Assembly (NCBI GenBank): GCA_964387845.1
Contig: CAYLXA010000003.1
Span: forward strand, 160,001 to 224,000
DNA: 64,000 nucleotides
Direction: 5' to 3'
From: an uncultured bacterium
GTDB taxonomy: Bacteria; Omnitrophota; Omnitrophia; Omnitrophales; Abzuiibacteriaceae
The first letter of the stretch is position 1, and every line of letters begins with the position of its first letter. Below, one piece after another: positions 16,932-59,539 of this stretch. Made by a program: the position numbers and the translations under genes. Below the pieces are notes generated by a model that was given only the letters and a program-made list of their open reading frames with translations, was not told where the DNA came from and made no database searches.

Positions 16932-17004
16932 CTCCCGAGCCAGGGCTCGAACCTGGGACCCAGCGATTAACAGTCGCTTGCTCTACCAACTGAGCTACTC
17001 GGGA
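16932..17004 (-). tRNA. tRNA-Asn (anticodon GUU)
   Basis: Reverse complement reads TCCCGAG-TA-GCTC-AGTTGGTA-GAGC-A-AGCGA-CTGTTAA-TCGCT-GGGTC-CCAGG-TTCGAGC-CCTGG-CTCGGGA-G. Cloverleaf with a 7-bp acceptor stem, GTTC T-loop and anticodon loop CT-GTT-AA; CCA is not encoded. Confidence 0.9.
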
Positions 17005-18496: not shown

Positions 18497-18743
18497 GCCT
18501 ATATCCTTTTCTATTTCCCCAAAAAATACAAAGACAAGTTAAAAGCAGCATCAAAAAAATGGATTCATAATTAAGCTGGATCAAACAATCTTCCAAAGAT
18601 CTGCCTATTACGATTAAATCTGCAATCCGGCTCAAAGCACTGTAAACCCCGTAGCAAGCACCATCAATCAGGTAGCCTCTGCCGGCAAAGAAAGCCAGCC
18701 AGCAAATTATTGCTAAAAGAAAAAACGGTCTTTGCTTTATCAT
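18483..18743 (-). CDS. Small membrane protein (hypothetical)
   Basis: 86 aa with 2-3 predicted TM helices. Overlaps the SGNH gene stop (ATGA) and the sulfatase start, consistent with operon membership. Confidence 0.35.
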   Translation of the reverse strand: MIKQRPFFLLAIICWLAFFAGRGYLIDGACYGVYSALSRIADLIVIGRSLEDCLIQLNYESIFLMLLLTCLCIFWGNRKGYRRDKK

Positions 18744-44595: not shown

Positions 44596-45552
44596 ATGAA
44601 AATTTATTCAGATATCACCAAAACCATCGGCAATACACCGCTTGTGCGCCTAAACCGGGTTACAAAAGGCTGCAGCGCGGAAATTGTTGCCAAATTGGAG
44701 TTTTTCAACCCGATGGCGAGCGTCAAAGACCGGATCGGCGTTAATATGATTGAAGATGCGGAAAAAAAGGGTGTTTTAAAGCCCGGCGCGACCGTGATTG
44801 AACCTACGAGCGGTAATACGGGAATTGCGCTTGCGTTTGTTTGTGCCGCAAAGGGTTATAAATTGATTCTGACAATGCCCGAAACCATGAGCATTGAACG
44901 CAGAATGCTTTTGACGCTTCTCGGTGCGGAAGTTGTACTGACAAAAGGCGAAGAAGGCATGCGCGGCGCGATTAAAAAGGCCGAAGAGTTGGTTGCATCA
45001 ACACCCGGTTCATTTATGCCGCAGCAATTTAAAAATCCCGCCAATGTTGAAATCCACCGGAAATCCACCGCGGAAGAAATCTGGCGCGATACGGACGGTA
45101 AAGTCGATATTTTAATTTCAGGTGTCGGAACCGGCGGAACTATTACAGGCGTTTCTGAAGTCATCAAAACTAAAAAATCGAGCTTTAAAGCCATCGCAGT
45201 TGAACCGAAAGATTCGCCGGTGCTTTCAGGCGGAAAGCCGGGCCCGCATAAAATTCAGGGAATTGGCGCCGGGTTTATTCCGGATATTCTCAATACGAAA
45301 ATTATTGATGAAATTATCCAAGTATCAAATGAAGAGTCGCTTGAATGGGCACGCCGGCTTGCAAAAGAAGAAGGCCTTCTCGTCGGAATTTCTTCGGGCG
45401 CTGCTGTTTCTGCCGCAGTTCAGGTCGGGAAACGGCCCGAAAATAAAGGCAAGTTGATTGTCGTCATCATTCCAAGTTTCGGCGAGCGCTATTTGAGCAC
45501 GGCACTTACGGAAGGCGTTCGTGATATTGCAACCGCACAAGCCGCCCGGTGA
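44596..45552 (+). CDS. cysK: Cysteine synthase A (O-acetylserine sulfhydrylase)
   Basis: [12 protein letters not shown]-terminus, PLP Lys motif (SVKDRIG), GTGGT. Confidence 0.9.
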
Positions 45553-47081
45553 CCGATCGATTTAAATTAGCAGCCGGTTTTGGTTTGTTGGTTGCCGTTT
45601 TACTGCTTTTTTTCTGCCTTTCACGCGACTTCGTATCCGCTTCGGAATCTTCATTCCGGTTAAGCAGCGCTACTTTCTTAATTTTCAGAATCACAATCGC
45701 ACTTTTCTGCATATTTTTGCTCGTCTCACAGAATGTTTCTTTCTCCAAATATATCCCGGGCGCTGTTTTATTTCTTTTTGTGCTGATGTTCTTAGAAAAG
45801 TGGACTCAGCATATGAGCTTCAATACGCATTCCCATGATGTGGGGCTTTTTCACAGCGCGCTCTGGAATTCGTTGCACGGAAATTGGCTGCTTGATTCGG
45901 TACGAGGCCAGTTTTATCTGGCAGACCATTTGATTTTCTTTTTGTATTTTCTCATCCCGTTTTATTGGATTTACTCGGGCCCTGAAACTTTGTATTTTTT
46001 ATCAGCCGTTGCGTTTGCATTTAGTGCATTCTTCATTTTCAAACTTGCAAAAGAGCGCTTGAAGAATGAGCTCGCGGCCTTTTTAATTTTCACCGCTTTT
46101 GCGAGCAACCGTTACATTTGGGGCGCTTTTCTGCATGAATTTCATCCGGATTTTTTTGCGCCGCTGTTTTTGTTTATACTGTTTTTTTCTTTCTATCAGA
46201 AAAAATTTTTCCCGTTCTTTCTGTCGTTTGTCTGCATTTTAATTTTGAAAGAAGATTACGCGCTCTATTTAATCCCGGCTGGAATTTATTTTTTTATCCA
46301 AAAAGAAGGAAAACCGACCGGCCTTGCTGTGATTTTAATCAGCGTGGTTTATTTCGGAGCGGCTTATTTCTGGATACTGCCGCACATGCAGAAAATTTCA
46401 GGGATAACTTCGGGTTACACATACGTTAACTCGTGGTCTCATTTGGGTTCCGGGCCTTTTGATATTGTTAGAAATTTGGTTTTAAATCCGGCGGCTTTTC
46501 TTTCTTCAATTTCTTACAAAACAATCTTTACTTTTTTCACCAAGTTCATTTTCTTGCCCTTTTTAAGCCCCGCAAGCCTTCTATTTCTACTTCCGCCGAT
46601 TTTTTTATATACATCTGCCCAGTTTGAGCTGATCCGAGGCCTGAGCGTGCATTACGGTCTGATTCCGGCGGCGTTTGGATTCATTGCTGTGATTGAGGCT
46701 GTGAGAAATCTGGAGAAGATGAAAATACCGAAAAATCTGACTCCCATTCTGATTTCCATTTTATGTGTTGTCGGTCTTTTCCGATTCACTTTCTTCATCC
46801 CAATGCCGGAGTCGGGAGAGCTTAAAATGCGCCAAGACGGGTTCATGAAAAAAAGGCCGATTTGTGTCCAGTCATCCCTTTTCCCGCATTTAGTTCCTGA
46901 CGGCTCATTTTCCATTTTTCCGGAATGTTCCGCAGGAGATAAATACTTACTTTTATTTGCAAAGGCCGAAACCTACCCGTTTTCAAAACCGGAGTTTCAG
47001 AAACGTTTGTCTGAAATTATTGCAAGCGACAAGTGGCAACTTAAAGAGAATTCCGGCGGAGTCATGCTGTTTGAAAAGTGA
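45549..47081 (+). CDS. DUF2079-like polytopic membrane protein (putative GT-C-type glycosyltransferase)
   Basis: 510 aa with at least 10 TM helices. Early conserved block …[21 protein letters not shown]…. GTG start overlapping the cysK stop. Confidence 0.4.
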
Positions 47082-47149
47082 GTTCGCAATTAAATATATC
47101 TATGATATGATCACTGCTTATAAATAGAGTTTTCAAATCAAGGAAAGTT

Positions 47150-48136
47150 ATGCCTAATTTTTGGAGCAATGCAAAAGTTTTAGTAACGGGCGCGCATGGT
47201 TTTACGGGGTCTCACCTGTGTCATGAGCTTGTGGCACAAGGTGCTCAGGTAAAAGCGTTTGTGAAGAACGGTGGCATGATCGCAAACCTTGCCGATATCC
47301 GCGATAAAATCACGATCTATTCGGGTGACGTTACGGATATTACAAGCCTTTTCACCTCAATGGAGGGCGTCGACTACGTATTTAATGCCGCCGCCATTGT
47401 TCCCGTTATCGAAGCCCGTCAGTCTCCGCAAGCCTGTCTTCAAGTGAATACCATCGGTGCCTACAACGTTGCTTATGCTGCGATGAAATCGGGTATTAAA
47501 AAAATGCTTCACGTAAGCACCTGTCATATTTACGGATTTAGTTCAGCCGACGAGCTTCCGATCAAAGAAACCCTGGTTCCTCGCCCAAGAGACGTTTATG
47601 CAGCATCAAAATATGCCGCAGAGATTTGTTTAAAAACACTGGTTGATGAAGGTTTTCCCATTACTTTTACCCGGGCGTTTGCGATGTATGGCCCCGGCCA
47701 ACGGGAACAGTTGTTTATTCCGAGAGTAATTGCCCATTTGCTTAGAGGAGAAGCGCCCAAGCTTGGCAATTCTCACCCGACACGCGACTACTGCTTTATC
47801 AAAGACACGGTTAGAGGTTATTTACTTGCGCTTGAAAAGGGAAAGCCGGGCGAAGTTTATCATTTGAGTTCCGGGAAAGAAGTTGTCATGAAAGATTTGT
47901 ATGATCTAATTGCAAAGCTATTGGGAAGTAATTTAAAAGCCACCTGGAATATGGATCCTAGGCCGCACGAAATTGACAGGCTTTGCGGAAATTCAGACAA
48001 AGCCCGTTCTGCATTCAACTGGAAGCCCGAAGTGAGTTTTGAAGAGGGCCTTAAAATTACGATTGAATGGTGGAAAAGCCATCCGGAATTATGGAAGCCC
48101 GGTTCCGGCCACCCTGTTGCGCCTTTAGCAAGATAA
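47150..48136 (+). CDS. NAD-dependent sugar-nucleotide epimerase/dehydratase (extended SDR)
   Basis: VLVTGAHGFTGSHL Rossmann motif and YAASKYAAE catalytic YxxxK. Confidence 0.75.
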   Translation: MPNFWSNAKVLVTGAHGFTGSHLCHELVAQGAQVKAFVKNGGMIANLADIRDKITIYSGDVTDITSLFTSMEGVDYVFNAAAIVPVIEARQSPQACLQVNTIGAYNVAYAAMKSGIKKMLHVSTCHIYGFSSADELPIKETLVPRPRDVYAASKYAAEICLKTLVDEGFPITFTRAFAMYGPGQREQLFIPRVIAHLLRGEAPKLGNSHPTRDYCFIKDTVRGYLLALEKGKPGEVYHLSSGKEVVMKDLYDLIAKLLGSNLKATWNMDPRPHEIDRLCGNSDKARSAFNWKPEVSFEEGLKITIEWWKSHPELWKPGSGHPVAPLAR

Positions 48137-48142
48137 AAAATC

Positions 48143-50509
48143 GTGCTTAAAGCAAAAGCCGCGAATGCATCCCATTGTTTTTGGTTTCTTCTAATTGTTC
48201 TTGCCCAGTTTATTTTCTTTGCGTATTGGATCATAACGCAAAGGATGTTCAGTGAGCACGACACATTCCATTTTTTTAGTCTCCAATATTATTATTTAAA
48301 TCATGCCGTGATGTATGGAGCCATTCCGCAATGGATCCCGTTTCTGACACACGGACTGATCGCCAGCCAGTTTTACGCTTTACAATCTGGACTCCTGCAA
48401 AATGTATTCATGCTGATTGCGCCCGTCTTTAAGCCGTTTAATTTTCTCAATATTTTTTACGCCAGCATGTTTATAGACGAATTGTTTCTTCTGGCCGGTT
48501 CGTGGCTTTTGGCAAAACGTTATTTTAAGTCAGTTTACACGGTTTTTTTTGTCTGCATTTCTGTCATCGGGTCAGCAATTTGGGCCTACCAGCCGTGGTT
48601 TAATTTCCGGTTCTATTATGCAATTCCGCTTATTCTTTTCTTTTTTCACACATTCTTAGATACGGGCCGCTGGCGGTATTTTGTTCTTGGCATGAATCTA
48701 ATTGCCATTCAAACGCTAGGCAATTTGTCCTATCTCATTCCGTTTACGACCGCCGCTCTTTTTGTATACTTTCTGTTGCATTTTTTTCTAAATCAGGAAA
48801 CTGTTCTCAAACAATTCAGCCAAATCCGGTTCAATCACTCGTTATGGATTCCGGCTTTTTGGATAGCCGTGTCTTTTACGGCGGTTTATGCAATCTTGGC
48901 TTTCGGCACCGATCAAGTTTTGTATTACGGCCACTTGCGGGCCCGCGACGGCAGTGTTGCATTAGAAAGTTTTATGCATACGAGGCCTGAAATGGGAAGG
49001 TTTAGCTTTTTTGAGTTCATGCTGGGCATTTTGCCTTTTAATGATTACACCATGTATACAGGTTTTATCTCGGCTTTTATGGTTATGTGGGCGCTGGTTA
49101 CTAAGTGGGATAGCCGGAAATCCGCTTTGATCTTGTTTTGTGCTTTCATTTTATTTTTCGCCTACGGCACTTTTGTGAGTATTTTCTTCTACCATGTCTG
49201 GCCCATGATGAAATATTTCCGCCACATTGAATTGACGATGAGTTTTTGTAAGTTGTTTCTTTGCTTTTTAGCAGGGTTTGGCTTTGAGGCGTTTTTTATA
49301 TCTCAAGAACCTTCCGGAAGAATAAAAATCCTTTTCGCTGCACTAGCTTTAATTATTTCCGCAGGTTTTTCTGCCGTCATGGCCAATCCTGATTTGTCCG
49401 GAAAAATATTTTCCTTTTTTAAATTAGACCCCGCTTTTGTTGATTTTTTGTACAGGAAGTATGAAGCAAGAGGCCTTTTGATTTTAGCGGCGGGATTGGC
49501 TTTTTCCGCAGTTTTGCTGATAAGTCTTAAAAAAAAGTTTGCTGCAATTCTGTGGTTTGTATTAATGGTTCATAGTTTGGATCTTTTTTTTTACAAGTGG
49601 CAGTTATTTTATGACGGCAGCACAAAATTGAGCCCAAAACAGTACCAGACGCTGCAATTTACCAAGATTCCCTTTTTTGAAAGCCGGGAAAGTAGTTATA
49701 CGGAAAGAGAGGTTATTTTTGGAGATGAGCCTAGCAAATTTTTTGAGGGAAGCAATGCCAGGTATTGGACACTTTTTACATTTCTTTTTCAAGATAGCTT
49801 TAACAGCGAGCGGCAAACCGATCAGTGGCTGAAGCCGCTCGATCATTTGATAAAGGCTTACCATGGCCAGTCTATTCATGATACAGAAGCTGTGCCTGCT
49901 GACGGATTTAATCAAAGGGAGCACAAACTCATTCTGCCTAATAAACCCTCGCTCCAAAAAATCAGCTCCCTCACCGAAGACAAAATCCAGTTCTTCTCGG
50001 ATGCCCATATCCTGGGTTCTCCGGATGAGGTTGCCGGATTAATGACAGACCCTCAATTTAAGGGAGATCTTCTTTTCTTGAATCAGCCGGGCCATGATCC
50101 TAAACCCTTTAACCGGCCGCTTGATTCCAATGAGCGCCTGAATCTCGACTATGAAGTCACTCATTTTGATTCCAATCAAATCCAAGTCTCAGTCAATATC
50201 CCGGGCAATCAACCCGCCTGGATATTCTACAGCGATGTCTGGCATCCTTTTTGGAAGGTAATAGTCAACGGTAAAACAAAAACAGTCTATAAAGCCGATC
50301 TTGCCTATAAAGCCGCCCCCCTAGAACCCGGGCAAAACAACATACGTTTCTACTTCGAATCCAACTGGATCTCTTTCCTTCATCTCTTCTTTAACCTCCA
50401 TGCCGTCTTCTGGCTCCTCATCCTGTGCCTGCTCATTGCCAAGATCTGTGTGCCGGAGGGGAGGTGGGGCAGGTTAAAAATTTTCGCTTTGATGCTTAAA
50501 GAGATATGA
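48143..50509 (+). CDS. YfhO-like GT-C family membrane glycosyltransferase, paralogue A
   Basis: 788 aa. N-terminal polytopic domain carrying the HDTFHFF…GAIPQWIP motif typical of YfhO-type proteins, then a large extracytoplasmic C-terminal domain and a terminal TM. Its last ~170 aa are identical to paralogue B. Confidence 0.55.
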   Translation: MLKAKAANASHCFWFLLIVLAQFIFFAYWIITQRMFSEHDTFHFFSLQYYYLNHAVMYGAIPQWIPFLTHGLIASQFYALQSGLLQNVFMLIAPVFKPFNFLNIFYASMFIDELFLLAGSWLLAKRYFKSVYTVFFVCISVIGSAIWAYQPWFNFRFYYAIPLILFFFHTFLDTGRWRYFVLGMNLIAIQTLGNLSYLIPFTTAALFVYFLLHFFLNQETVLKQFSQIRFNHSLWIPAFWIAVSFTAVYAILAFGTDQVLYYGHLRARDGSVALESFMHTRPEMGRFSFFEFMLGILPFNDYTMYTGFISAFMVMWALVTKWDSRKSALILFCAFILFFAYGTFVSIFFYHVWPMMKYFRHIELTMSFCKLFLCFLAGFGFEAFFISQEPSGRIKILFAALALIISAGFSAVMANPDLSGKIFSFFKLDPAFVDFLYRKYEARGLLILAAGLAFSAVLLISLKKKFAAILWFVLMVHSLDLFFYKWQLFYDGSTKLSPKQYQTLQFTKIPFFESRESSYTEREVIFGDEPSKFFEGSNARYWTLFTFLFQDSFNSERQTDQWLKPLDHLIKAYHGQSIHDTEAVPADGFNQREHKLILPNKPSLQKISSLTEDKIQFFSDAHILGSPDEVAGLMTDPQFKGDLLFLNQPGHDPKPFNRPLDSNERLNLDYEVTHFDSNQIQVSVNIPGNQPAWIFYSDVWHPFWKVIVNGKTKTVYKADLAYKAAPLEPGQNNIRFYFESNWISFLHLFFNLHAVFWLLILCLLIAKICVPEGRWGRLKIFALMLKEI
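48257..48345 (+). repeat. 89-bp block 100% identical to 53150-53238 (N-terminal region of the YfhO-like paralogues)
   Basis: Direct comparison: cacgacacattccatttttttagtctccaatattattatttaaatcatgccgtgatgtatggagccattccgcaatggatcccgtttct in both copies. Confidence 0.9.
49194..49247 (+). repeat. 54-bp block 100% identical to 54087-54140
   Basis: atgtctggcccatgatgaaatatttccgccacattgaattgacgatgagttttt in both copies; it encodes VWPMMKYFRHIELTMSF. Confidence 0.9.
49955..50464 (+). repeat. 510-bp block 100% identical to 54767-55276 (C-terminal ~170 codons of the YfhO-like paralogues)
   Basis: Verified line by line. Identity begins at caaaaaatcagctccctcaccgaagac and ends at tgtgccggaggggagg. Flanking sequence diverges immediately on both sides. 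Confidence 0.9.
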
Positions 50510-50542
50510 TAAGCTGACATTTAAGATTTTGAATTAGGATTA

Positions 50543-51562
50543 TTGTTCAATCGAAACCAATTCAAAAACCCTATGTTTCAAAACAAAAAAGTACTAGTGA
50601 CCGGCGGCAGCGGGATGATCGGCCGGTTTTTGGTCGATTTTCTCATTGAAAAGGGCGCCAAAGTCAGGGTTGCGTCTCTGGATGATCCGTCGCGCGTACA
50701 TGCCAAAGCAGAATTCCGCCGTGCAAATTTAACGGAATTTAGTGCCTGCCTGGCGGCCTGCGAAGGCATGGATTATGTTTTTCATTTGGCAGGAATCAAG
50801 GGCTCCCCATTAATGGCGGCCAAAAGGCCCGCTAGTTTCTTTGTCCCTATTATTTCATTCAATACCAACATGATGGAAGCGGCGCGTCAGTGCAAAGTCG
50901 AGCGCTATTTGTATACCAGCACTATCGGAGTTTACGCTCCGGCTGAAGTATTCTATGAAGACGATGTATGGAAAGCATTTCCTTCCGAGAATGACAAGTT
51001 TGCGGGATGGGCCAAGCGCATCGGGGAACTTCAGGCCGAAGCCTATAAAATTGAGCACGGCTGGAACGGTGTTCAGATTGTCAGGCCGGCCAACGTGTAC
51101 GGCCCTTATGATAATTTTGACCCCAACAATTCAACTGTCATAGCGTCATTAATTAAACGGGCCGTAGATGGTGAAAATCCGCTTACGGTTTGGGGCGATG
51201 GTTCGCCGATCCGAGATTTTATTCACGCCAAAGACGTTGCCCGCGGCATGCTGATTGTGATGGAAAAAATGCCCGGAAAGCCCGTCAATTTGGGAAGTGG
51301 CGTGGGTGTTACCATTAAACAAATTGTCGAAGTTATCGTGAGCCATTTAAAGAAAAAACCCGAAATTATGTGGGATACGTCAAAGCCGTTGGGCGATAAA
51401 AAGCGCCTGATGGATGTTGCGCGCGCCAAGTCTATCGGTTTTGAACCCGAAATATCGATTGAGCAAGGGATTCATGAACTCATGGATTGGTATCGAGCCA
51501 ATAGGCAGTTACTTGATAAACGGTATAATGTTTTTACTCAAGATAGATTGATGTCAACCTAG
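50543..51562 (+). CDS. GDP-L-fucose synthase-like NAD(P)-dependent epimerase/reductase
   Basis: VLVTGGSGMIGR, YxxxK (YAPAE…), and NVYGPYDNFDPNNSTVIASLIKRA, which resembles the Fcl NLYGPxDNF…HVIPALI block. Confidence 0.6.
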   Translation: MFNRNQFKNPMFQNKKVLVTGGSGMIGRFLVDFLIEKGAKVRVASLDDPSRVHAKAEFRRANLTEFSACLAACEGMDYVFHLAGIKGSPLMAAKRPASFFVPIISFNTNMMEAARQCKVERYLYTSTIGVYAPAEVFYEDDVWKAFPSENDKFAGWAKRIGELQAEAYKIEHGWNGVQIVRPANVYGPYDNFDPNNSTVIASLIKRAVDGENPLTVWGDGSPIRDFIHAKDVARGMLIVMEKMPGKPVNLGSGVGVTIKQIVEVIVSHLKKKPEIMWDTSKPLGDKKRLMDVARAKSIGFEPEISIEQGIHELMDWYRANRQLLDKRYNVFTQDRLMST

Positions 51563-51615
51563 AAAGGCGGCGCTGTATTTCCCAAAATTTTTTAATTACC
51601 GGGATTCGAAGCGGC

Positions 51616-52344
51616 TTGGGCCGATATTTGCACGAAGAACTCAAAGGGCGAGGTATTTCTCGAGAAACGATTGGTGAAGAATTTAATCAAATAATAAAAT
51701 CAGGCGCTCAAACGATTATTCATTGTGCCTTTAACTCGTTTCAGAACGCCGACCCTGCATTAGCAAGCAATCTTCGTAAAGAAAATCTCGTGTTCACAAA
51801 AAAACTGACCCAAATCCCTCATCAAAAGTTTATTTTTATTTCCAGTGTAGATGTTTATCCAAGAAATTCGGAACTGCACAACGAAAATGAAGTTATTCAA
51901 GAGAACCAAGTCGAAGGCGTATACGCCAAAAGCAAATTTGAATGTGAATCAGCCGTTCAAATCGGGTGTAAAAATTATTTAATATTGCGCTCTTCGTCAC
52001 TCCTTGGTAAATATTCGAGACCGAGCAGTTTAATTCGCATATTAAAAGAAGAAAATTGCCGGCTGACATTGTCGCCTGATTCGGATTTAAATTGCGTACT
52101 TTATGAAGATGTTCTCGGATTTTTGCGTCTTTCAGTCAAAGAAAGTCTGAAGGGAGTTTATAACACCGTGTCATCGGGAAATATTTTGGTGTCTGATGCT
52201 GCGAAATTATTAAAGAAAAAAGTAGAGTTTGGAAATTATAGTTATCAGGTCGGAAACGTCGATAATCGTAAAGCTTCATTGATATATCCGGCATTTAAGA
52301 AGACATCAGAGCAAATATTCAAACAATTTTCTAGACAAATATGA
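51616..52344 (+). CDS. NAD-dependent epimerase/reductase (RmlD-like); start uncertain
   Basis: YAKSK catalytic motif. The Rossmann motif ITGIRSGLG is encoded in frame upstream (51589-51630) of the called TTG start, with no ATG/GTG after the in-frame stop at 51544. Confidence 0.5.
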   Translation: MGRYLHEELKGRGISRETIGEEFNQIIKSGAQTIIHCAFNSFQNADPALASNLRKENLVFTKKLTQIPHQKFIFISSVDVYPRNSELHNENEVIQENQVEGVYAKSKFECESAVQIGCKNYLILRSSSLLGKYSRPSSLIRILKEENCRLTLSPDSDLNCVLYEDVLGFLRLSVKESLKGVYNTVSSGNILVSDAAKLLKKKVEFGNYSYQVGNVDNRKASLIYPAFKKTSEQIFKQFSRQI

Positions 52345-53012
52345 AGACAACTTTATTAGTTCCTACTCTGAACGAAATTGAAGGCATGAAAATCATCATG
52401 CCAAGAATTGACCCTAAGTGGGTTGATGAAATTTTAGTAATCGACGGCGGCTCTACGGACGGAACCATTGAATATGCGAAGGAGCACGGCTATCGGCTGA
52501 TACATCAAAAATCAAAAGGAATCACATTGGCCTATAAAGAAGCTTTGGATCAAATTTCAAACGATGTTGTCATTGCGTTCAGCCCTGACGGCAACTCAGT
52601 TCCTGAAATAATTCCGGATTTGATACGGGCCATGAAAGAAGGATACGACATGGTGATCGTTTCTCGCTATTTAAAAGGAGCTGGTAGTGAAGATGACGAC
52701 CCCGTTACCGCATTTGGGAATTGGATGTTTACCGCGATCATCAATCTGGTTTTTGGAGGGCATTATACCGATACGCTCGTGATGTTCCGGGCTTTTAAGA
52801 CGAGCGTTGTTAAATCGTTTCCGACCAATGTGCCGCGCGCAGGCCTTGAACCCATGCTTTCCATCCGGTGCGCTAAGCATAAACTCAAAGTTTCTGAAAT
52901 TCCGGGTAAAGAACCAAAGCGAATCGGCGGAATCCGAAAAATGGTCCCTATTTTGAATGGGCTCGATATTGTAAAGCTCATCGTCCAAGAGAGACTTTCA
53001 CCGAATTCTTAA
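52341..53012 (+). CDS. GT2-family glycosyltransferase (polyprenyl-phosphate sugar synthase, DPM1/GtrB/CsbB-like)
   Basis: …LVPTLNE…ILVIDGGSTDGT… and DxD-like …AFSPDGNS… of GT-A fold; 223 aa. Confidence 0.75.
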   Translation: MKTTLLVPTLNEIEGMKIIMPRIDPKWVDEILVIDGGSTDGTIEYAKEHGYRLIHQKSKGITLAYKEALDQISNDVVIAFSPDGNSVPEIIPDLIRAMKEGYDMVIVSRYLKGAGSEDDDPVTAFGNWMFTAIINLVFGGHYTDTLVMFRAFKTSVVKSFPTNVPRAGLEPMLSIRCAKHKLKVSEIPGKEPKRIGGIRKMVPILNGLDIVKLIVQERLSPNS

Positions 53013-53035
53013 GCCTTCCTTTATTAGAGGTTAGC

Positions 53036-55309
53036 TTGGAAAAGATAAAAAAATTTTTTAATCTAGAATTCCGTTTATTTTTTCTGCTAGTTTCAATTCA
53101 AGCCGCTTTTTTTTTGACGTTAATTCTGCAAAAAAGGCTCCCAAATTCACACGACACATTCCATTTTTTTAGTCTCCAATATTATTATTTAAATCATGCC
53201 GTGATGTATGGAGCCATTCCGCAATGGATCCCGTTTCTCACGCACGGATTGATTGCAAACGGATTTTATGCGCTGCAATGCGGGTTTCTACAGAACGTGC
53301 TTATGGCGGCTGCGCCGTTTTTGAGCAAAATCAATTTCTTGCCCGTATTTTATGCGGGCATGTTTGTCGATGAGCTTCTGCTGGTTGTTGGTACTTGGCT
53401 GCTTGCCAAAAGATTTTTTTCATCTTTATCGACCGTTTTTTTTGTTTGCATCTCGGTCGTCGGCTCCTCCGTTTGGGTAACCCAACCGTGGTTTAATTTT
53501 CGGTTTCTTTATACGGTTCCGCTTATGATTTATTTTTTTCATCTGTTTCTTGAATCTGCCAAATGGCGGTATTTTTTCCTAGGATTTGGCTTAATGGCCT
53601 TTCAAACGCTCGGCAATTTGGCGTATTCGATTCCGTTTACCAGTGTTTTTATTTTCATGTACTTTTTATTTTATACAGCTTTAAATTTCAGAAACGTACT
53701 GGCTCAAGCCAAACAAATAAAATTTAATTTTTCGTTGCTGATTCCGGCTTTGTGGGTGATTGCACTATTCGTGCTCTGTTACAGCATTCTTTCATTCGGA
53801 ACGGATGAGGTAATGCATTACGGTTTTAACAGGAATCGAGACGGCACTGTCAGCCTCGGTGATTTTTTGGATGCAAGCCCACTTTTGGCCAGGCTCAGTC
53901 CCGATGAGCTTCTGTTTGGTGCGCTTCCGTCAATTGATTACTCGCTATATGCAGGAGTGGCGGCAGTTTATTTTGCGATAGCGGGCGCTATTGCAAACAG
54001 AAGTAGAAATAAAATCGTATTTGTTTTATTGGCCATTTTTATCATGCTCTTTTCTCAGGGAGCTTTTGTCAGCATGTTTTTTTATTATGTCTGGCCCATG
54101 ATGAAATATTTCCGCCACATTGAATTGACGATGAGTTTTTTCAGGCTATCCATGTGCTTTTTAGCGGGTTTTGGCTTCGAGTGGCTCTTGGTTCACAAGA
54201 CGGAAACAGGGAGGGCACATGTTTTTATAGCGTCGGTTTGCTTTATCGCATCATTAGGATATTTTATTTTGGGCTATGGTGAAAATAGCAACGGTTTTTT
54301 AATATTGATAATCGGAACTTTATTTTCATTTTTTCTTTTATTTGACAGAAAGAAGTGGCATGGAGTTACTGTTGTACTTTTATTAATGCTCCATAGCGTT
54401 GATATATTTGCATATAAATGGACCGAGTTTGAAAAGAAAAGTTTTTTACTCAATGAGCAACAGTATGAAATTCTAAAATTTTCAAAGATCCCGTTTGTTA
54501 GTAAAAGAGACCAAGGATATTCGGGTCGAGAACCTATTTTGGGCGATTTGCTTCAGTTCGTGATTCGCGGAGGGAATTATTGGACGATTTATGCATTTCT
54601 TTTCAAAGATGACTTCGATAGCTATTTACAGACCCATCAATGGATGCTACCTCTCGACCAGTATTTAAGGGCCTATGCCGGGGTTTCTATATATGATCGT
54701 CAATCGGTGCCAATACCTACGTTTCGCATCAACCGCGCTTTGGTATTTCCAAGAAGTTCTTCTTTGCAAAAAATCAGCTCCCTCACCGAAGACAAAATCC
54801 AGTTCTTCTCGGATGCCCATATCCTGGGTTCTCCGGATGAGGTTGCCGGATTAATGACAGACCCTCAATTTAAGGGAGATCTTCTTTTCTTGAATCAGCC
54901 GGGCCATGATCCTAAACCCTTTAACCGGCCGCTTGATTCCAATGAGCGCCTGAATCTCGACTATGAAGTCACTCATTTTGATTCCAATCAAATCCAAGTC
55001 TCAGTCAATATCCCGGGCAATCAACCCGCCTGGATATTCTACAGCGATGTCTGGCATCCTTTTTGGAAGGTAATAGTCAACGGTAAAACAAAAACAGTCT
55101 ATAAAGCCGATCTTGCCTATAAAGCCGCCCCCCTAGAACCCGGGCAAAACAACATACGTTTCTACTTCGAATCCAACTGGATCTCTTTCCTTCATCTCTT
55201 CTTTAACCTCCATGCCGTCTTCTGGCTCCTCATCCTGTGCCTGCTCATTGCCAAGATCTGTGTGCCGGAGGGGAGGCAGCGCGGCGTGAAGATATATGAA
55301 TTAATTTAG
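53036..55309 (+). CDS. YfhO-like GT-C family membrane glycosyltransferase, paralogue B
   Basis: 757 aa with the same architecture as paralogue A, to which it is roughly 35-65% identical over most of its length. Three segments (89, 54 and 510 bp) are 100% nucleotide-identical to A. Confidence 0.55.
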   Translation: MEKIKKFFNLEFRLFFLLVSIQAAFFLTLILQKRLPNSHDTFHFFSLQYYYLNHAVMYGAIPQWIPFLTHGLIANGFYALQCGFLQNVLMAAAPFLSKINFLPVFYAGMFVDELLLVVGTWLLAKRFFSSLSTVFFVCISVVGSSVWVTQPWFNFRFLYTVPLMIYFFHLFLESAKWRYFFLGFGLMAFQTLGNLAYSIPFTSVFIFMYFLFYTALNFRNVLAQAKQIKFNFSLLIPALWVIALFVLCYSILSFGTDEVMHYGFNRNRDGTVSLGDFLDASPLLARLSPDELLFGALPSIDYSLYAGVAAVYFAIAGAIANRSRNKIVFVLLAIFIMLFSQGAFVSMFFYYVWPMMKYFRHIELTMSFFRLSMCFLAGFGFEWLLVHKTETGRAHVFIASVCFIASLGYFILGYGENSNGFLILIIGTLFSFFLLFDRKKWHGVTVVLLLMLHSVDIFAYKWTEFEKKSFLLNEQQYEILKFSKIPFVSKRDQGYSGREPILGDLLQFVIRGGNYWTIYAFLFKDDFDSYLQTHQWMLPLDQYLRAYAGVSIYDRQSVPIPTFRINRALVFPRSSSLQKISSLTEDKIQFFSDAHILGSPDEVAGLMTDPQFKGDLLFLNQPGHDPKPFNRPLDSNERLNLDYEVTHFDSNQIQVSVNIPGNQPAWIFYSDVWHPFWKVIVNGKTKTVYKADLAYKAAPLEPGQNNIRFYFESNWISFLHLFFNLHAVFWLLILCLLIAKICVPEGRQRGVKIYELI
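54767..55276 (+). repeat. Second copy of the 510-bp identical block
   Basis: See 49955-50464. Confidence 0.9.
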
Positions 55310-56287
55310 AGGAAGTTTTATGATGCTGGCTGAAATTAGCGGCTCACCGATTTCAATTTCGGTTCCAACCTGAAGATAATCACTTGCAACGAAACCAAGC
55401 GCAAGCGGCTTTGAAAGCGCAGGCGAAAACACGGCGCTTGTGATCCGGCCGATTTCCTTTCCCGATTTTTGAATTTTATCTCCCAAATTAGGGATTTTGT
55501 CTCCGGCCACAATAATTCCGGTTAACTGTTTTGCAAATTTTCCGCGGCTGTCGATTCGCGCGACAATTTCCTGGCCCGGGTAGCAGCCTTTTGTAAAGCT
55601 CACAGCTTTTGGCTCGATTAGTTTCACTTCCGGCAAGATAATGTCTTCAGTCAGGTCAATTCCATACCGCGGCGTTCCGGATTCAACGCGTAAAATCTGA
55701 ATAATTTCAGATTCAATTTGCGAGATGCCCAGCGGCTGCGCAGCGCTTTTGATTTTTTCGAGTGCTTTGCTTTTTTCTTGGCTCGGAATCACAATGCACC
55801 AAGTTTTAAATCCGAAAAGGGAGATACAGAAAATCCGGCAGTCAAAATCTTTTGCTTTTGACGGCCCGTGCGAAAAAATCTCCTTCGGGTAATCACTATT
55901 AAAAAGCGTTTTAACGGCATCTTCAGCTTTCGGGCCCAAAATCGCCAAGATCGAAAGCTCTTTAGATTGATTGGTAAATGTTACATCGTCGGTAACCGTA
56001 AATTTTTCTAGAACGCCAATGACTTTCTCGGTAATCGAAGATTCCATAGCAAGCCACGTTCTTTCATTTTCAACAAACACATTCATGTCGGCGATGATTT
56101 TAGCCTGAGCATTCAACAGGCAAGCATAACAGCCGCTTCCGGATTTTATGTTTTTGATATCATTTGTGAGCATCCGGTGAAGAAATGAAACGGCATCTTT
56201 TCCGTTCACTTCGATTAAGGCCCGGTTTGAAAGATCAATGATTGCGCCGTTAGATTTTGCGGATTTGTATTGATCCATGTTTTTCAT
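55301..56287 (-). CDS. ygfZ: YgfZ-family folate-binding protein (GcvT-like, Fe-S cluster repair/tRNA modification)
   Basis: KGCYPGQE signature near the C-terminus and a GcvT-like fold; 328 aa. Confidence 0.75.
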   Translation of the reverse strand: MKNMDQYKSAKSNGAIIDLSNRALIEVNGKDAVSFLHRMLTNDIKNIKSGSGCYACLLNAQAKIIADMNVFVENERTWLAMESSITEKVIGVLEKFTVTDDVTFTNQSKELSILAILGPKAEDAVKTLFNSDYPKEIFSHGPSKAKDFDCRIFCISLFGFKTWCIVIPSQEKSKALEKIKSAAQPLGISQIESEIIQILRVESGTPRYGIDLTEDIILPEVKLIEPKAVSFTKGCYPGQEIVARIDSRGKFAKQLTGIIVAGDKIPNLGDKIQKSGKEIGRITSAVFSPALSKPLALGFVASDYLQVGTEIEIGEPLISASIIKLPLN

Positions 56288-58449
56288 ATTTTTGTCGTCA
56301 AGCGGGTTCCGATCCAGAATAAAGCCAGTGATGCCAACACACCAAAAAGAATCTGGAGATTTGTAAAAGGTTCATAATCCATCGAAACATGCCGGTCTCC
56401 CGGTTTTACTTTGATGCGCATCAAGCGGTCTTCTTTTGCATAAATACCCCTCTCTTTCCCGTTGACGAGCGCTTTCCAGCCTTTTAAATCAATAAACGTT
56501 GCAACCAACTCTTCTTCCCGTTGAATGGAAGGCAGCTTCACCTTTAGGCCGTTGCCTTTTATTTGAATCGACGCAGGATCGAGCCAGGACCTGACGTTCC
56601 CATTTTGGAGATAAACAATACTAACCGGTTCCGGATTTTCAAAAAGCAAGAGAATGGATTGCTGGCCGGCAACGCGCCAGTTATTTTCCATCAATTCCCG
56701 GCGCGGCCCCGTCAAAATGTATTTAATTCCGAGGCGGTTCACTTTTTCCTGGTCCCAGGGCCCCACAAAATGATAAGCAAGCGGCGTCAGGTCAACTTCG
56801 ATCATTTTTTCTTTCATCAGAAAATCCGCGAAACGCTTGTTTACCAAAATGCTGCGCCCCGCGCTGCCAAGAACATATTTTTCGGCAGCCCGTAAATCGT
56901 GCCCATGCGCGGTGACAATTTCGGCAGCAAGGCGTGAATTAGGCGTCATTGCGTCGAGAAATTTTTCAGGCAGAAATTTTGATTCCCAGCTGTTTGAGTA
57001 ATGATGAATAGGAAAAGGGCCCGGGTCTTTGCTGACGCAGCATTCGGACCAATCTTCGAGATTCAAAATATTGGCTGCTATGGTTACCTTTGACCAAATC
57101 AGCGACAGGCCCAGCAGCCCGCAAAAAATCAGGCCGATGTTTGATCGGGCTTGTTTGCCGGAATCTATTTTTGAAGCCAAACAATAAATTGCGTACAAAA
57201 TAACAAAAGCCAAGAAAAAGAAAACGGGAAATTTATATTTCCACTCAATTTGATGCCAATCGAGCCAAAAAACTGATGCGAGAAGAACCGCCGCAAGAAT
57301 AGCTAAGGAAACCGCCAAAAACTTTTTCGAAAAGGCATTTTTTGAAATTTTATCCAGCGCGATTCCGGCCGGAACGGCAAAAAAAACGCTCGAAATCCAC
57401 CAAATTCGCGTGGCATCGGTGGATTTAAGAAGCGGGGCGGATAAGTAAAAGTCTTTGAAACGCAAAAGGAGAAAGACAAAAATGACAGGCCCAATTCCTA
57501 AGATCAGAAACCGGACAGGAAAATAAATATTCTTTTTGAAATCATTCTTAAAACTCCAAACAAGCCCGATTAAGGATAAGGTGACAAGCGGCAGTGAAAA
57601 ATAAATCGCGGAATCCATGTGATGGCGCCATGGTTTTTGCTGGCCGATCAGGCCCGATAAAAGCCGCTTAAAAGTGTAATCCGGAGCCAAATATTTTTGG
57701 CCGACGCGCGCGCTTTCTTTTACATGTTCAAAAAAGTTCATAAAATCTGCGTAATAAAATAAAAATCCTGCCGCGATCACGATCAAAGTCAAAATCATTT
57801 TTTTGTCAAACCTGGCTCGGGACAAAAAGAGTTGGTTCAACACGATAAAAGGGATCATCAAAAAAACAAGATTGGTGCTTGTGCTTAAAGTTGCGGTCAC
57901 CATAGCCGCATAAAACAAGAAAAGGTACTTCGCGTTAGGTTTGTCATTGAAGCGCTCTTGAAATATCAAAATTGCTATAAAACATAAAAGCGACAATTGA
58001 TAGTAATGGTGTGCGAAATGCCATAAAAATCCGGGCGAAAAAAAGGTGACGACTGCGCAAATAGCGGCAATTCCGGCCGGCATATATTTTTTCAAATAAA
58101 AAATAAGCGCAAACACCGTCAAAAACGCAATCGCAGCCCGATTTATTGTCATGGCTACCGGATTCGGAAAAAAATAATAGGTAAGGGCGTGGGGCGAAAA
58201 CGGATAAGTGGTTGCATCGCCTAAAATAGGTGTTCCGAAATTGTGGTACAAGTTCATCATCGGAATTTGGCCGTCGCGCATGATCGAACGGGCTATGAAA
58301 AGATTGGGAAACGTGTGATTGGCGTCGTCTGCCTTGTCGAATGCGGCACAATCGGTAAAAAAGAAAACTTTGATGATCACGAACAAAGCAATCGCCAGAG
58401 GAACAAACCCGTACACAATTTGTTTCTTAAAGCTAAACGGCATGAGCAT
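56284..58449 (-). CDS. YfhO-like GT-C family membrane glycosyltransferase, divergent paralogue C
   Basis: 721 aa. N-terminal …ANHTFPNLFIARSIMRDGQIPMMN… parallels the HDTFHFF…GAIPQW block of A and B. The C-terminal domain parallels …W..L/VVNGK……KA…, followed by a terminal TM. It overlaps ygfZ (ATGA) downstream and mutY upstream. Confidence 0.5.
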   Translation of the reverse strand: MLMPFSFKKQIVYGFVPLAIALFVIIKVFFFTDCAAFDKADDANHTFPNLFIARSIMRDGQIPMMNLYHNFGTPILGDATTYPFSPHALTYYFFPNPVAMTINRAAIAFLTVFALIFYLKKYMPAGIAAICAVVTFFSPGFLWHFAHHYYQLSLLCFIAILIFQERFNDKPNAKYLFLFYAAMVTATLSTSTNLVFLMIPFIVLNQLFLSRARFDKKMILTLIVIAAGFLFYYADFMNFFEHVKESARVGQKYLAPDYTFKRLLSGLIGQQKPWRHHMDSAIYFSLPLVTLSLIGLVWSFKNDFKKNIYFPVRFLILGIGPVIFVFLLLRFKDFYLSAPLLKSTDATRIWWISSVFFAVPAGIALDKISKNAFSKKFLAVSLAILAAVLLASVFWLDWHQIEWKYKFPVFFFLAFVILYAIYCLASKIDSGKQARSNIGLIFCGLLGLSLIWSKVTIAANILNLEDWSECCVSKDPGPFPIHHYSNSWESKFLPEKFLDAMTPNSRLAAEIVTAHGHDLRAAEKYVLGSAGRSILVNKRFADFLMKEKMIEVDLTPLAYHFVGPWDQEKVNRLGIKYILTGPRRELMENNWRVAGQQSILLLFENPEPVSIVYLQNGNVRSWLDPASIQIKGNGLKVKLPSIQREEELVATFIDLKGWKALVNGKERGIYAKEDRLMRIKVKPGDRHVSMDYEPFTNLQILFGVLASLALFWIGTRLTTKI

Positions 58450-59539
58450 ATTGTTCGAAGGTTGTTTTCAATAGACTTTGGTAAGGGACCGGAAAAGAAA
58501 GCTTCGTGATTCCGGAACGTGAAACCCAGCGGCTTCCGGAATTAACATGGCCTTGATTCGTTTTGAAAACAAACGGCGAAATTGTCATCTTCAAATGTGT
58601 TAAGTGATGCGTAATCGGTTCGATTGAAGCTATGGGCGCGGCTTTCATTTTGTATTCATTATGAATGTAGCGTTCGATTAATTCACGGAACGAATTTTTA
58701 ACCGGCGAAGTGATGCTTGGCACTTCCCAAAGCCCGCCCCAAATGCCTTTCGCCGGCCGTTTCCGGACCAAAATTTTTCCGTCATTCAAGATAAAAGCAG
58801 CCGCAATCCGGACTTCTTTTTTCTGCAGAGCCTTGGATTTGATCGGCAATGATTCCTGATTTCCTTTTTTATATGCGGAACAAACCGAAGAAACCGGACA
58901 AGCCGTGCAATTGGGCATCGCCGGAATGCAAATCAAGGAACCAAGTTCCATGAGCGCTTGATTAAAATCTCCAGGTGATTTTTCAGGAACCAACTGTCCG
59001 GCAATTTCGTATAAAAATTTCTGCGTTTCGGGTTTTAAAATATCCTTTTTGATATTAAAAAGCCGGGAAAGAACGCGCGCCACATTTCCATCGACAAGCG
59101 GCACGCGCTTTTCGAATCCGATGCTGGCGATGGCGCCTGCCGTGTAGCGTCCGATTCCCGGAAGCGCGAAGAGAGAATCAAAATCACTCGGAATTTTTCC
59201 GCCGTGTTTTTCACAAATCATTTGCGCCGCTTTATGCAGATTTCGCGCGCGCGTGTAATAACCAAGCCCCTCCCAAAGTTTTAAAACCTTATCGATCGGC
59301 GCTGCGGCGAGTGATTCGATATCGGGAAACACTTTCATCCAGCGTTCGAAATAGGGAATCACGGTCTTGATCTGAGTTTGCTGAAGCATGACCTCAGAGA
59401 TGAATGTTCGGTAAGGGCTTTTTTGGGAGCGCCAGGGCATGGGACGCTTATTTTTGGAAAACCAGGCAAGCAGGTTTTTTTGAATCTTTACCTGTACATT
59501 TCCCGAAACTTTCGAATTCATAGAGCTAGAATTTATCAT
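58433..59539 (-). CDS. mutY: A/G-specific adenine DNA glycosylase MutY
   Basis: HhH-GPD (…LPGIGRYTAGAIASI…), a 4Fe-4S cysteine cluster (C-x6-C-x2-C-x5-C), and a C-terminal NUDIX-like domain. Confidence 0.85.
   Translation of the reverse strand: MINSSSMNSKVSGNVQVKIQKNLLAWFSKNKRPMPWRSQKSPYRTFISEVMLQQTQIKTVIPYFERWMKVFPDIESLAAAPIDKVLKLWEGLGYYTRARNLHKAAQMICEKHGGKIPSDFDSLFALPGIGRYTAGAIASIGFEKRVPLVDGNVARVLSRLFNIKKDILKPETQKFLYEIAGQLVPEKSPGDFNQALMELGSLICIPAMPNCTACPVSSVCSAYKKGNQESLPIKSKALQKKEVRIAAAFILNDGKILVRKRPAKGIWGGLWEVPSITSPVKNSFRELIERYIHNEYKMKAAPIASIEPITHHLTHLKMTISPFVFKTNQGHVNSGSRWVSRSGITKLSFPVPYQSLLKTTFEQYAHAV

Follow-up and report, generated by a model that had tools for sequence, protein, structure and literature searches.

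A candidate locus for sugar transfer across the inner membrane, with two undescribed families of GT-C-fold proteins, in an uncultured Omnitrophota bacterium

The locus at 45549–58449 of the window, i.e. the whole 64,000-nucleotide stretch of Omnitrophota DNA that was analysed, probably encodes a pathway in which a modified sugar, first coupled to a lipid carrier within the cell, is transferred onto a target outside the inner membrane. This reading builds on the folds, family relations, conserved residues and gene linkage that the analysis has established. The overall scheme is already known, and the membrane enzymes belong to unstudied families. The first-pass annotation had placed 11 ORFs in the locus, and all 11 were confirmed in position; those with a proposed role are listed in Table 1. 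Among the others, cysK and ygfZ matched PALP and GCV_T, respectively, in profile searches; ygfZ also matched the YgfZ domain model TIGR03317 (72 bits, cutoff 49) and mutY matched TIGR01084 (350 bits, cutoff 286.5).

Table 1. Features of the locus, numbered by position in the window
Feature	Coordinates	Strand	Size	Description
DUF2079 protein	45549..47081	+	510 aa	Polytopic membrane protein, candidate fourth GT-C-type enzyme
SDR1	47150..48136	+	328 aa	Extended SDR on sugar nucleotide; Pfam Epimerase 8.9e-47
A	48143..50509	+	788 aa	GT-C-fold glycosyltransferase, undescribed family, YfhO-type architecture
Repeat copy 1	49955..50464	+	510 nt	Exact repeat, 3′ end of gene A
SDR2	50543..51562	+	339 aa	GDP-fucose-synthase-like extended SDR, opens the SDR2-SDR3-GT2 cassette
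SDR3	51577..52344	+	~255 aa	Short RmlD-like SDR; canonical ORF 51616-52344
GT2	52341..53012	+	223 aa	GT2 without TM, predicted polyprenyl-phosphate sugar synthase
B	53036..55309	+	757 aa	GT-C-fold glycosyltransferase, paralogue of A
Repeat copy 2	54767..55276	+	510 nt	Exact repeat, 3′ end of gene B
C	56284..58449	-	721 aa	GT-C-fold glycosyltransferase, second undescribed family

The GT-C-fold membrane proteins

Proteins A, B and C possess a polytopic membrane core with the GT-C fold. In the model of A, helices extend up to residues 466–492 and are followed by a beta-rich domain (493–740) and a final helix (741–769); in the model of C, helix 432–461 is followed by a domain (462–696) and a final helix (697–720). 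YfhO is reported to have about 13 TM helices, the final two of which flank a large extracytoplasmic domain (PMC5836110), and A and C, as modelled, share this layout, with about 13 helices and an outside domain of 235–250 aa between the last two. In both models, a conserved acidic residue sits straight after helix 1, in the first extracytoplasmic loop, and the catalytic Asp of GT-C enzymes is positioned directly after TM1 (PMC11127046, PMC5836110). This residue is D40 in A, conserved in at least 90% of 43 homologues, and D41 in C, conserved in at least 90% of 50 homologues, with D38, D41 and D42 invariant in the 7 closest ones.

The term “YfhO-like”, under which these proteins were first annotated, holds for their architecture and C-terminal domain, but the YfhO profile leaves the membrane cores unmatched and none of the three reaches the gathering threshold of Pfam YfhO (PF09586), 28.5 bits. 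C gave only a sub-threshold YfhO match of 20.9 bits confined to its final 67 residues (profile positions 759–825 of 835), and A and B matched no Pfam or NCBIfam model. Weak matches to the YfhO profile were obtained with 24 of 43 A-family and 16 of 50 C-family homologues; all seven that were inspected cover only the C-terminal ~70–120 profile positions, the best at 28.5–31.1 bits. No YfhO structure was found by PDB sequence search.

What had been described as three divergent paralogues is in fact one recent pair, A and B (60% identical across 770 residues and wholly identical in the final ~170), together with C, which aligns with A over the C-terminal domain only. A/B and C represent two separate, undescribed families in uncultured diderm phyla. 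The common 3′ end of genes A and B is identical at the DNA level over 510 nt, i.e. their last ~170 codons, and covers part of the outside domain and the last TM helix. The flanks of the repeat, taken at the same offset, are identical at a random level only (~20–35%), because the collinear alignment of the two paralogues has another offset. The matching region is not identical in the paralogue pair of the closest relative, L001, and a short-read contig of independent origin is interrupted 30 nt within the end of the repeat.

The DUF2079 assignment was upheld by Pfam search (PF09852, E 8e-42, 144.3 bits against a gathering threshold of 28.2). This protein has about 10 hydrophobic segments, and its gene is syntenic in L001 and adjoins A-family genes in four further loci (L013, L021, L032 and L043). 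Its hhalign match to the C family is weak (66% probability, E 5e-5, 249 N-terminal columns), and pairs the post-TM Asp motif of DUF2079 with FDxxDD of C; DUF2079 is thereby a candidate member of the GT-C clan.

The acceptor of these enzymes is most likely an exported envelope polysaccharide. An unlikely alternative to such decoration is that the three to four GT-Cs build a periplasmic or surface glycan chain stepwise outside the membrane from one lipid-linked monosaccharide, as mycobacterial Emb, Aft and Mpt build arabinan and mannan from decaprenyl-P-arabinose and polyprenyl-P-mannose. Polymer building would agree with the presence of several GT-C genes per GT2, both here and elsewhere (3 to 5 A-family genes stand in tandem in L005 and L006), and with a GT-C_AftD protein that lies 4 kb from the Levybacteria copy of the cassette. 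It would also agree with A and B having an identical outside-domain stretch but diverged cores, a combination that two linkages on a single polymer would be expected to give. Structural matches include AftA, AftD and EmbA-C as well, yet these are not better than PglB, STT3 and PMT, and a primer-making gene was not found in the locus. Moreover, the neighbourhoods of C-family genes contain a classical 314-aa GtrB-type GT2 in 14 of 34 loci, as well as ABC-2 exporters, GHMP kinase and nucleotidyltransferase, and exporters with cytoplasmic GT2s near C genes fit the decoration of a polymer made inside. Glycosylation of proteins (pilins, S-layer or outer-membrane proteins) instead of a polysaccharide, in the manner of PMT, PglB and TfpW, is considered quite unlikely.

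The GT2, its linkage to GT-C genes and the SDR enzymes

The GT2 (Pfam PF00535, 54.6 bits) had been expected to act on polyprenyl phosphates, which its solved sequence relatives support, all seven PDB sequence matches being polyprenyl-phosphate glycosyltransferases (DPMS, ArnC or GtrB). Against this assignment, it falls below every curated NCBIfam equivalog cutoff, with AglJ (3.6e-31, 108.6 bits, cutoff 325) and Dol-P-hexose transferase (7e-24, 83.9 bits, cutoff 375) as its top matches, and weakly matches the PpgS model of 226 positions (E 3.4e-4). No hydrophobic segment was detected in its 223 residues and it has no membrane anchor of its own, which likewise counts against the assignment, as does the S-P-D that it carries at the position of D-A-D in P. 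furiosus DPMS; the motif FSPDGNS is conserved in 15 of 15 orthologues aligned. Homologues of this GT2 fall into more than 7,000 clusters at 90% identity, and the groups that hold them include Patescibacteria, Elusimicrobiota, Omnitrophota and Verrucomicrobiota.

In many genomes from at least five phyla, close GT2 orthologues adjoin A- or C-family genes or are found in their vicinity. Such orthologues (phmmer 1e-58 to 1e-79) were no more than 10 kb away from an A-family gene in 11 of about 60 loci and, at the same distance limit, from a C-family gene in 7 of the about 34 loci holding one, in several phyla. Near-duplicates may be among these loci (L002/L007; L075/L076/L084). The orthologues linked to A-family genes are 45–56% identical and come from MAGs of Desulfobacterota, Omnitrophota, Planctomycetota, Verrucomicrobiota and Acidobacteriota; this type of GT2 also lies near C-family genes in metagenome contigs, and at the locus whose GT2 is closest to that of the window (78%), a C-family gene lies 3 kb upstream. 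On the other side, most of the A- and C-family loci fetched, many of them on short contigs, show no GT2 within 10 kb. The idea of a short GT2 that makes a lipid-linked sugar for GT-C proteins outside the membrane, which was central to the first-pass annotation, is supported by the polyprenyl-phosphate relatives of the GT2 and by the recurrence of the GT2/GT-C pairing across phyla. The GT-Cs may use a polyprenyl-phosphate-linked donor, to which their repeated proximity to a predicted synthase of such lipid-linked sugars points indirectly.

The closest relative, L001, keeps the order DUF2079, A, B, ygfZ, C, mutY, with no SDR or GT2 at the locus; the GT-Cs therefore do not need the cassette in cis, and the sugar genes are not a fixed component of the locus. 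The position of C beside mutY and ygfZ, pointed out earlier as unusual, is real, but the mutY-C-ygfZ arrangement was seen in this lineage only and is hence silent on function; cysK, ygfZ and mutY are neighbours by lineage-specific synteny.

The SDR2-SDR3-GT2 cassette itself is conserved, being present also in genomes of Patescibacteria and Elusimicrobiota and on metagenome contigs. It could be a mobile module for another pathway, placed incidentally beside A, B and C, whose donor would then come from elsewhere; the absence of the cassette from L001 would agree with this, as would the flanks fetched for L117, L118 and L121, which show no GT-C gene, and the GT2 is 64–78% identical to Patescibacteria, Elusimicrobiota and Omnitrophota homologues against ~54% to A-adjacent ones, which suggests horizontal acquisition. 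Yet this is the least probable of the explanations considered. Against it, the GT2 lies immediately (23 nt) upstream of the A-family gene B, an order shared with six other loci (L002, L005, L007, L008, L026 and L036), the cassette type is found near a C-family gene in L120 and near an AftD-type GT-C in L116, and the 220-aa and 234-aa GT2 types have all motifs in common.

Profile searches identified the three presumed NDP-sugar epimerase/reductase genes as extended SDRs (Table 1). The best NCBIfam scores of SDR1 are LegB (195 bits, cutoff 475) and RmlB (155, cutoff 365), with Gmd at 63 (cutoff 415), and in its alignment with the dTDP-glucose 4,6-dehydratase 8shh, STCHIYG lies opposite STDEVYG. 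With TCH instead of TDE and scores under every cutoff, SDR1 is not supported as an NDP-hexose 4,6-dehydratase (RmlB/Gmd/LegB); its position is occupied by a NUDIX gene in L001. SDR2 is 64–71% identical to the cassette orthologues in L116, L117 and L118, has matches of 1e-172 in L120 and L121, and scores 151.9 bits with NCBIfam Fcl (cutoff 500). Aligned with E. coli Fcl (1bsv), it has G at Cys109 and Y at His179, which serve as the epimerisation acid/base; since both residues are replaced and the equivalog cutoff is missed, it is not supported as a GDP-L-fucose synthase. With the catalytic residues of dehydratase and fucose synthase missing from SDR1 and SDR2, the earlier suggestion of deoxy-sugars and a GDP-fucose synthase is not retained.

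In SDR3, the Pfam Epimerase and RmlD_sub_bind matches begin at profile position ~51–55. The canonical ORF lacks the glycine-rich loop, which is supplied by the in-frame codons upstream, NFLITGIRSGLG, among which there is no ATG, GTG or TTG. Orthologues of 231–264 aa begin M-x-FL(I/T)TGxxSGLG, the sequence is the same in an independent assembly, and the real start is likely ATT 51577. The stop of SDR3 and the start of GT2 share 4 nt, an overlap also present in L116, L120 and L121.

Proposed route to the outside of the inner membrane

For the preferred reading, lipid-linked sugar transfer to an acceptor outside the inner membrane, we infer all chemical steps, together with the sugar and the acceptor, as follows. 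Cytoplasmic SDR1, SDR2 and SDR3 would tailor the sugar, either as a nucleotide sugar or once on the lipid, and the soluble, TM-less GT2 would move it to polyprenyl phosphate on the cytoplasmic side of the inner membrane. After flipping by a transporter presumably encoded away from the locus, A, B, C and possibly the DUF2079 protein would transfer it onto a periplasmic acceptor. For this transfer the enzymes would rely on the conserved Asp that follows TM1 (D40 in A; D38/D41/D42 in C), while the acceptor probably docks on the beta-rich outside domain that separates the last two helices.

It may also be, though we put this forward only tentatively, that SDR2, SDR3 and the TM-less GT2 form a widespread, uncharacterised route to an unusual lipid-linked sugar, with one or both of the SDRs acting on the polyprenyl-phosphate sugar. 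DprE2 of mycobacteria acts on such a substrate, and ORF13 of Citrobacter O2 was proposed to do likewise. If this is true, the A and C families would be the founders of new GT-C (CAZy) families using the donor of this trio, with which they would assemble or decorate a glycan of the envelope that is peculiar to uncultured diderm phyla.

As for the flippase, the first-pass annotation saw no GtrA-like protein, and indeed none was found among the small multi-TM ORFs of the window tested by Pfam, nor any flippase among 10 small multi-TM ORFs of related loci, apart from a DMT_6 protein in two loci. There is a precedent for an unlinked flippase in B. subtilis, where gtcA lies at another locus than csbB-yfhO (gene IDs, PMC8035078), and flippases from other families exist, e.g. 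MATE (PMC11127046).

Comparison with known systems

Measured against three-component systems, the locus encodes a polyprenyl-phosphate glycosyltransferase together with GT-Cs, and a flippase was not found. It differs from GtrA/GtrB/Gtr(type) O-antigen glucosylation and from ArnC/ArnE-F/ArnT lipid A modification in having no linked GtrA or ArnE/F, and in GT-Cs with an extra beta-rich domain and terminal helix. GtrB and ArnC are membrane-anchored tetramers with DxD, whereas the GT2 of the locus is soluble with S-P-D. TM-less polyprenyl-phosphate sugar synthases include PpgS (Rv3631) of M. tuberculosis and human DPM1, which works with DPM2/3. GacI of S. pyogenes, which partners the small membrane protein GacJ, is, as proposed for the GT2 of the locus, a short GT2 domain that lacks membrane helices of its own and feeds a GT-C (PMC8035078). 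Unlike in GacI, PpgS and DPM1, a partner membrane protein was not found at the locus, the similarity to PpgS is marginal, and this GT2 group is set apart by its FSPDGNS motif and its close tie with a short SDR.

The GT136 pentofuranose systems of Citrobacter youngae O antigens differ by a lipid donor made from PRPP via polyprenyl phosphoribose synthase, not by a GT2, and by a C-terminal CBM with no further helix after it (PMC11127046). They resemble the locus, as interpreted here, in that a completed polysaccharide receives its decoration in the periplasm from a GT-C whose C terminus carries a beta-rich carbohydrate-binding module, that the choice of the added sugar lies with an auxiliary SDR epimerase and that the flippase is not GtrA-type.

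CsbB/GtcA/YfhO, which glycosylates lipoteichoic and wall teichoic acids in Firmicutes (PMC5836110, PMC8035078), is unlike the locus in several respects: the hosts here belong to diderm lineages, which have no teichoic acids, the GT2 lacks C-terminal membrane helices and is accompanied by three or four GT-C-type genes, the outside domain has ~235–250 aa where that of B. subtilis YfhO has 389 aa, and the membrane cores are unmatched by the YfhO profile. Both nevertheless have a GT-A and GT-C pair with an unlinked flippase and a GT-C of about 13 helices with a big outside domain between the final two, and the C-terminal ~70 residues are picked up by the YfhO profile in C as well as in many homologues of A and C.

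Gene order and transcription of the locus

The locus had been flagged by a first-pass annotation, whose gene map was borne out by the ORF listing and by profile searches. The forward-strand genes from cysK to membrane protein B are separated by gaps of only -4 to 68 nt and are thus likely to be carried on one transcript, and the reverse-strand genes mutY, C and ygfZ overlap by 17 and 4 nt. The order mutY-C-ygfZ is common to the window and to L001, its closest relative, and was not seen in other C-family loci; we read it as lineage-specific synteny. Promoter and terminator scans of the locus gave no more sites than chance would and were set aside. The single Rfam match in the window is a tRNA far from the locus. 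A second envelope-related block lies on the reverse strand at 17150-21164, and it resembles gene sets for O-acylation of polysaccharide or peptidoglycan.

Features of the window, with positions and strand
Feature	Position	Strand	Remark
sulfatase-family protein	17150-18496	-	
86-aa two-helix protein	18483-18743	-	
weakly DltD-like protein	18740-19672	-	
MBOAT acyltransferase	19635-21164	-	
tRNA gene	16932-17004	-	only Rfam match in window
cysK	44596-45552	+	318 aa
DUF2079 protein	45549-47081	+	510 aa
SDR1	47150-48136	+	328 aa
membrane protein A	48143-50509	+	788 aa
SDR2	50543-51562	+	339 aa
SDR3	51616-52344	+	242 aa as canonical ORF
GT2	52341-53012	+	223 aa
membrane protein B	53036-55309	+	757 aa
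ygfZ	55301-56287	-	converges on + strand genes
membrane protein C	56284-58449	-	721 aa; converges on + strand genes
mutY	58433-59539	-	converges on + strand genes

Membrane proteins A, B and C

The large membrane proteins A and B (60% identical at the protein level) matched no model of Pfam or NCBIfam, and C matched just one, YfhO, at a sub-threshold 20.9 bits over its last 67 residues. A homologue search returned 62 members of the A/B family, all from metagenomes or MAGs; among species-representative genomes the family occurs in Omnitrophota, Planctomycetota, Verrucomicrobiota, Desulfobacterota, Acidobacteriota and Myxococcota, and that scan gave no match closer than 41% identity. For the C family, a library clustered at 50% identity yielded 145 representatives at E<=1e-30. 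By BLASTP, C matches A only in a short C-terminal stretch, and in profile-profile comparison the families align solely over their C-terminal ~77-88 columns (97.8% probability over ~77 columns). The C-family HMM also gives weak collinear matches (E about 1e-5) to a few A-family proteins across their membrane core, a hint, though not proof, that the cores may be distantly homologous. At the related locus L018 (4191-6491), a 766-aa protein matches the HMMs of both the A family (5.6e-21) and the C family (6.3e-8) in core and tail, and may be an intermediate bridging the two. No signal was obtained when the DUF2079 protein was compared with the A family, and the one PDB match of the A-family profile, a designed coiled coil, was dismissed as chance.

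AlphaFold2 models of A and C were confident (pLDDT 89.7 and 93.8) and have about 13 helices, the last two flanking a beta-rich domain of 235-250 residues at 493-740 in A and 462-696 in C. B. subtilis YfhO is described as built in the same way, with about 13 helices and a large domain between the last two (PMC5836110). A Foldseek search with the C model agrees with a GT-C assignment. Moreover, a conserved acidic residue stands straight after the first helix (D40 in the A family; D38, D41 and D42 in the C family), the position at which GT-C enzymes carry their catalytic Asp (PMC11127046). Because of this fold, helix layout and acidic residue, we regard A, B and C as GT-C enzymes. They are predicted to have the YfhO-type architecture seen in the models of A and C, but none of the three belongs to the YfhO family as Pfam delimits it. 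The earlier label "YfhO-like" is therefore apt for the modelled architecture of A and C, but not at the Pfam threshold. That these proteins are unrelated transporters, an outcome which by the first-pass annotation would have spoken against its reading, was ruled out, as the significant structural matches include no transporter.

The public annotation of A (P0001, 754 aa) begins at Met35 and so loses the first transmembrane helix (window 48143-48245). Since homologues retain this helix and the model gives it a pLDDT of about 96, the GTG at 48143 is the better start. In L001, the B orthologue as called (722 aa) shows the same truncation.

The 3' ends of A and B contain an exact direct repeat of 510 nt (49955-50464 and 54767-55276), which takes in the last helix and part of the outside domain; elsewhere the two proteins are only about 60% identical. 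In the L001 paralogue pair the corresponding regions are similar, not identical. The repeat likely reflects a recent gene conversion, by which one putative acceptor-binding module would have been kept on two different cores. An assembly artefact was considered as well: across 2,745 nt an independent short-read contig matches the window without a difference, and it ends exactly at the edges of the repeat. A real repeat would have this effect, which does not by itself prove both copies.

The GT2 gene, its linkage and the sugar cassette

GT2 is a GT-A domain of 223 residues without a hydrophobic segment. As the first-pass annotation had proposed, its relatives act on polyprenyl phosphates: all seven of those found in the PDB by sequence are polyprenyl-phosphate glycosyltransferases, led by P. 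furiosus DPMS (3.5e-13) and followed by ArnC and GtrB. The best curated models, AglJ and a haloarchaeal Dol-P-hexose transferase, were both far below cutoff. At the position of the DPMS D-A-D motif GT2 carries S-P-D, and the motif FSPDGNS is conserved in 15 of 15 aligned orthologues. PpgS and DPM1 are other enzymes of this type that have no transmembrane segment. A further one, GacI, is partnered by the small membrane protein GacJ (PMC8035078). The family is large (>7,000 clusters at E<=1e-20), and within it the window's GT2 is 64-78% identical to versions of about 220 aa, including those of Patescibacteria, Elusimicrobiota and Omnitrophota.

Linkage was assessed at about 60 A-family loci, whose ORFs were searched with the window proteins. 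A GT2 orthologue (1e-61 to 1e-79) is the direct neighbour of an A-family gene, or at most about 1.5 kb away from one, at L002, L005, L007, L008, L026, L030, L036, L038 and L045, and within 10 kb at L009 and L029, in organisms from five phyla. The chance of finding a GT2 within 10 kb of a given gene is roughly 1% (1-2 GT2 per several-Mb genome), a figure that is our own estimate and not a computed control. Tandem arrays of A-family genes are common among these loci, and DUF2079 genes adjoin them in five. For the C family, a window-type GT2 was present in seven of 50 metagenome loci and a 314-aa GtrB-type GT2 (DADLQ, two C-terminal helices) in 14/34; further recurrent genes encode pairs of ABC-2 exporters, a GHMP kinase and a nucleotidyltransferase.

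Genes for B12-binding radical SAM proteins (about 470-520 aa, often several per locus) also neighbour A-family genes, forming the third most frequent neighbour cluster (31 genes in 17 of the about 60 loci: L002, L005, L008 and 14 others); they were seen too at L068 and three other C-family loci. Also recurrent are PMT_2-type GT-C proteins (9 loci), TPR proteins (9) and an unannotated 520-aa membrane protein (7).

At five loci (L116, L117, L118, L120 and L121), GT2 follows SDR genes that are one-to-one orthologues of the window's SDR2 and SDR3. In L116-L118 these are 64-71% and 33-43% identical to those of the window, with an extra SDR gene between SDR3 and GT2 in L118. L120 has the GT2 closest to the window's and a C-family gene 3 kb upstream on the same strand, and L116 an AftD-type GT-C gene 4 kb downstream of the cassette. 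In the latter, a Candidatus Levybacteria genome (GCA_016204525.1, 985-5430), SDR2, SDR3 and GT2 are 64%, 43% and 71% identical to the window. The Patescibacteria cassette is thus far more alike than distance predicts, which suggests horizontal spread. L001, a 525-kb JGI contig, keeps the order pilT-UDG-cysK-DUF2079-A-B-ygfZ-C-mutY-bioA-bioD and has neither SDR nor GT2 genes at the locus. A NUDIX hydrolase gene (9423-10004) takes the SDR1 position, and the stretch from the A to the B orthologue, occupied by SDR2-SDR3-GT2 in the window, contains only a 53-codon ORF (12439-12600). Since L001 keeps the GT-C genes without these, the cassette is variable and the GT-C set the stable part of the locus.

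The best model for SDR2 is GDP-fucose synthase, at 152 against a cutoff of 500, and it carries G and Y where the E. coli enzyme has Cys109 and His179. SDR1 resembles dTDP-glucose 4,6-dehydratases with TCH replacing the TDE motif, and SDR3 is a short RmlD-like SDR. An SDR can also act on a sugar already linked to the lipid, as DprE2 is described to do and as Citrobacter O2 ORF13 is proposed to do (PMC11127046). By analogy, the SDRs of the window might act in this way, a live alternative besides the usual nucleotide-sugar route.

No ATG, GTG or TTG was found upstream of the glycine-rich loop of SDR3 (window 51544-51620, NFLITGIRSGLG), whose orthologues start directly before this motif. The likely start is an ATT at 51577, 9 nt past a GAAAGG. 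The missing start codon is not a read error, because L119, an independent assembly, has the same sequence.

Proposed pathway and its alternatives

The best-supported model, which we consider reasonably probable, has four steps. The SDRs would tailor a sugar, the soluble GT2 would load it onto polyprenyl phosphate, an unlinked transporter would flip the lipid-linked sugar, and A, B, C and perhaps the DUF2079 protein would transfer it in the periplasm. The beta-rich domain would bind the acceptor, in parallel to the carbohydrate-binding module of GT136 and Emb proteins (PMC11127046). As acceptor we favour an exported polysaccharide, to which the gene contexts of the C family point. The observation behind the first-pass annotation stands, and its interpretation is supported in part. 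Neither of the two outcomes that the annotation had named as speaking against it arose: the large proteins group with GT-C enzymes rather than transporters, and the GT2 with enzymes that use polyprenyl phosphates.

The annotation had seen no GtrA-like flippase. Small hydrophobic ORFs were scanned in the window and about 110 related loci, and none of the small multi-TM ORFs tested by Pfam is GtrA-like. A small four-helix transporter of the DMT_6 (DUF486) family is encoded directly downstream of a C-family gene in L069 (5564-5956) and 4 kb from an A-family gene in L051 (5536-5916); in these two loci only, it is a possible ArnE/F-like flippase candidate. As the B. subtilis flippase is regularly encoded away from its partners (PMC8035078), the missing linked flippase is weak evidence.

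Perhaps, instead, the GT-C proteins assemble a polymer stepwise in the manner of Emb/Aft enzymes. The AftD-type neighbour of the L116 cassette would suit this reading and the YfhO-type architecture the four-step model, and we find stepwise assembly unlikely. Protein glycosylation, in which the acceptor would be a protein rather than the polysaccharide favoured by the C-family contexts, is somewhat less likely again. Least probable is a mobile cassette incidentally beside unrelated GT-C genes, for which its absence from L001 would be natural and the GT2 linkage in five phyla a coincidence.

The locus offers a concrete, expressible gene set for learning which sugar is transferred and to which destination. 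If the chemistry is ordinary (glucose or GlcNAc on an O-chain), its value is better annotation only. We found no papers on DUF2079 or on GT-C enzymes in Omnitrophota. To our knowledge, next to nothing is known of GT-A/GT-C glycosylation in Omnitrophota, Planctomycetota-Verrucomicrobiota, Desulfobacterota and Patescibacteria, whose envelopes, as far as we know, are not yet open to analysis in culture. Such extracytoplasmic glycosylation is well studied in Firmicutes, enterobacteria and mycobacteria. The GT-A/GT-C logic is established; what is not, and what the locus adds to it, are two GT-C families that Pfam and NCBIfam models miss, a soluble GT2 whose metal-binding motif is altered and a three-gene sugar cassette strongly conserved over very distant lineages.
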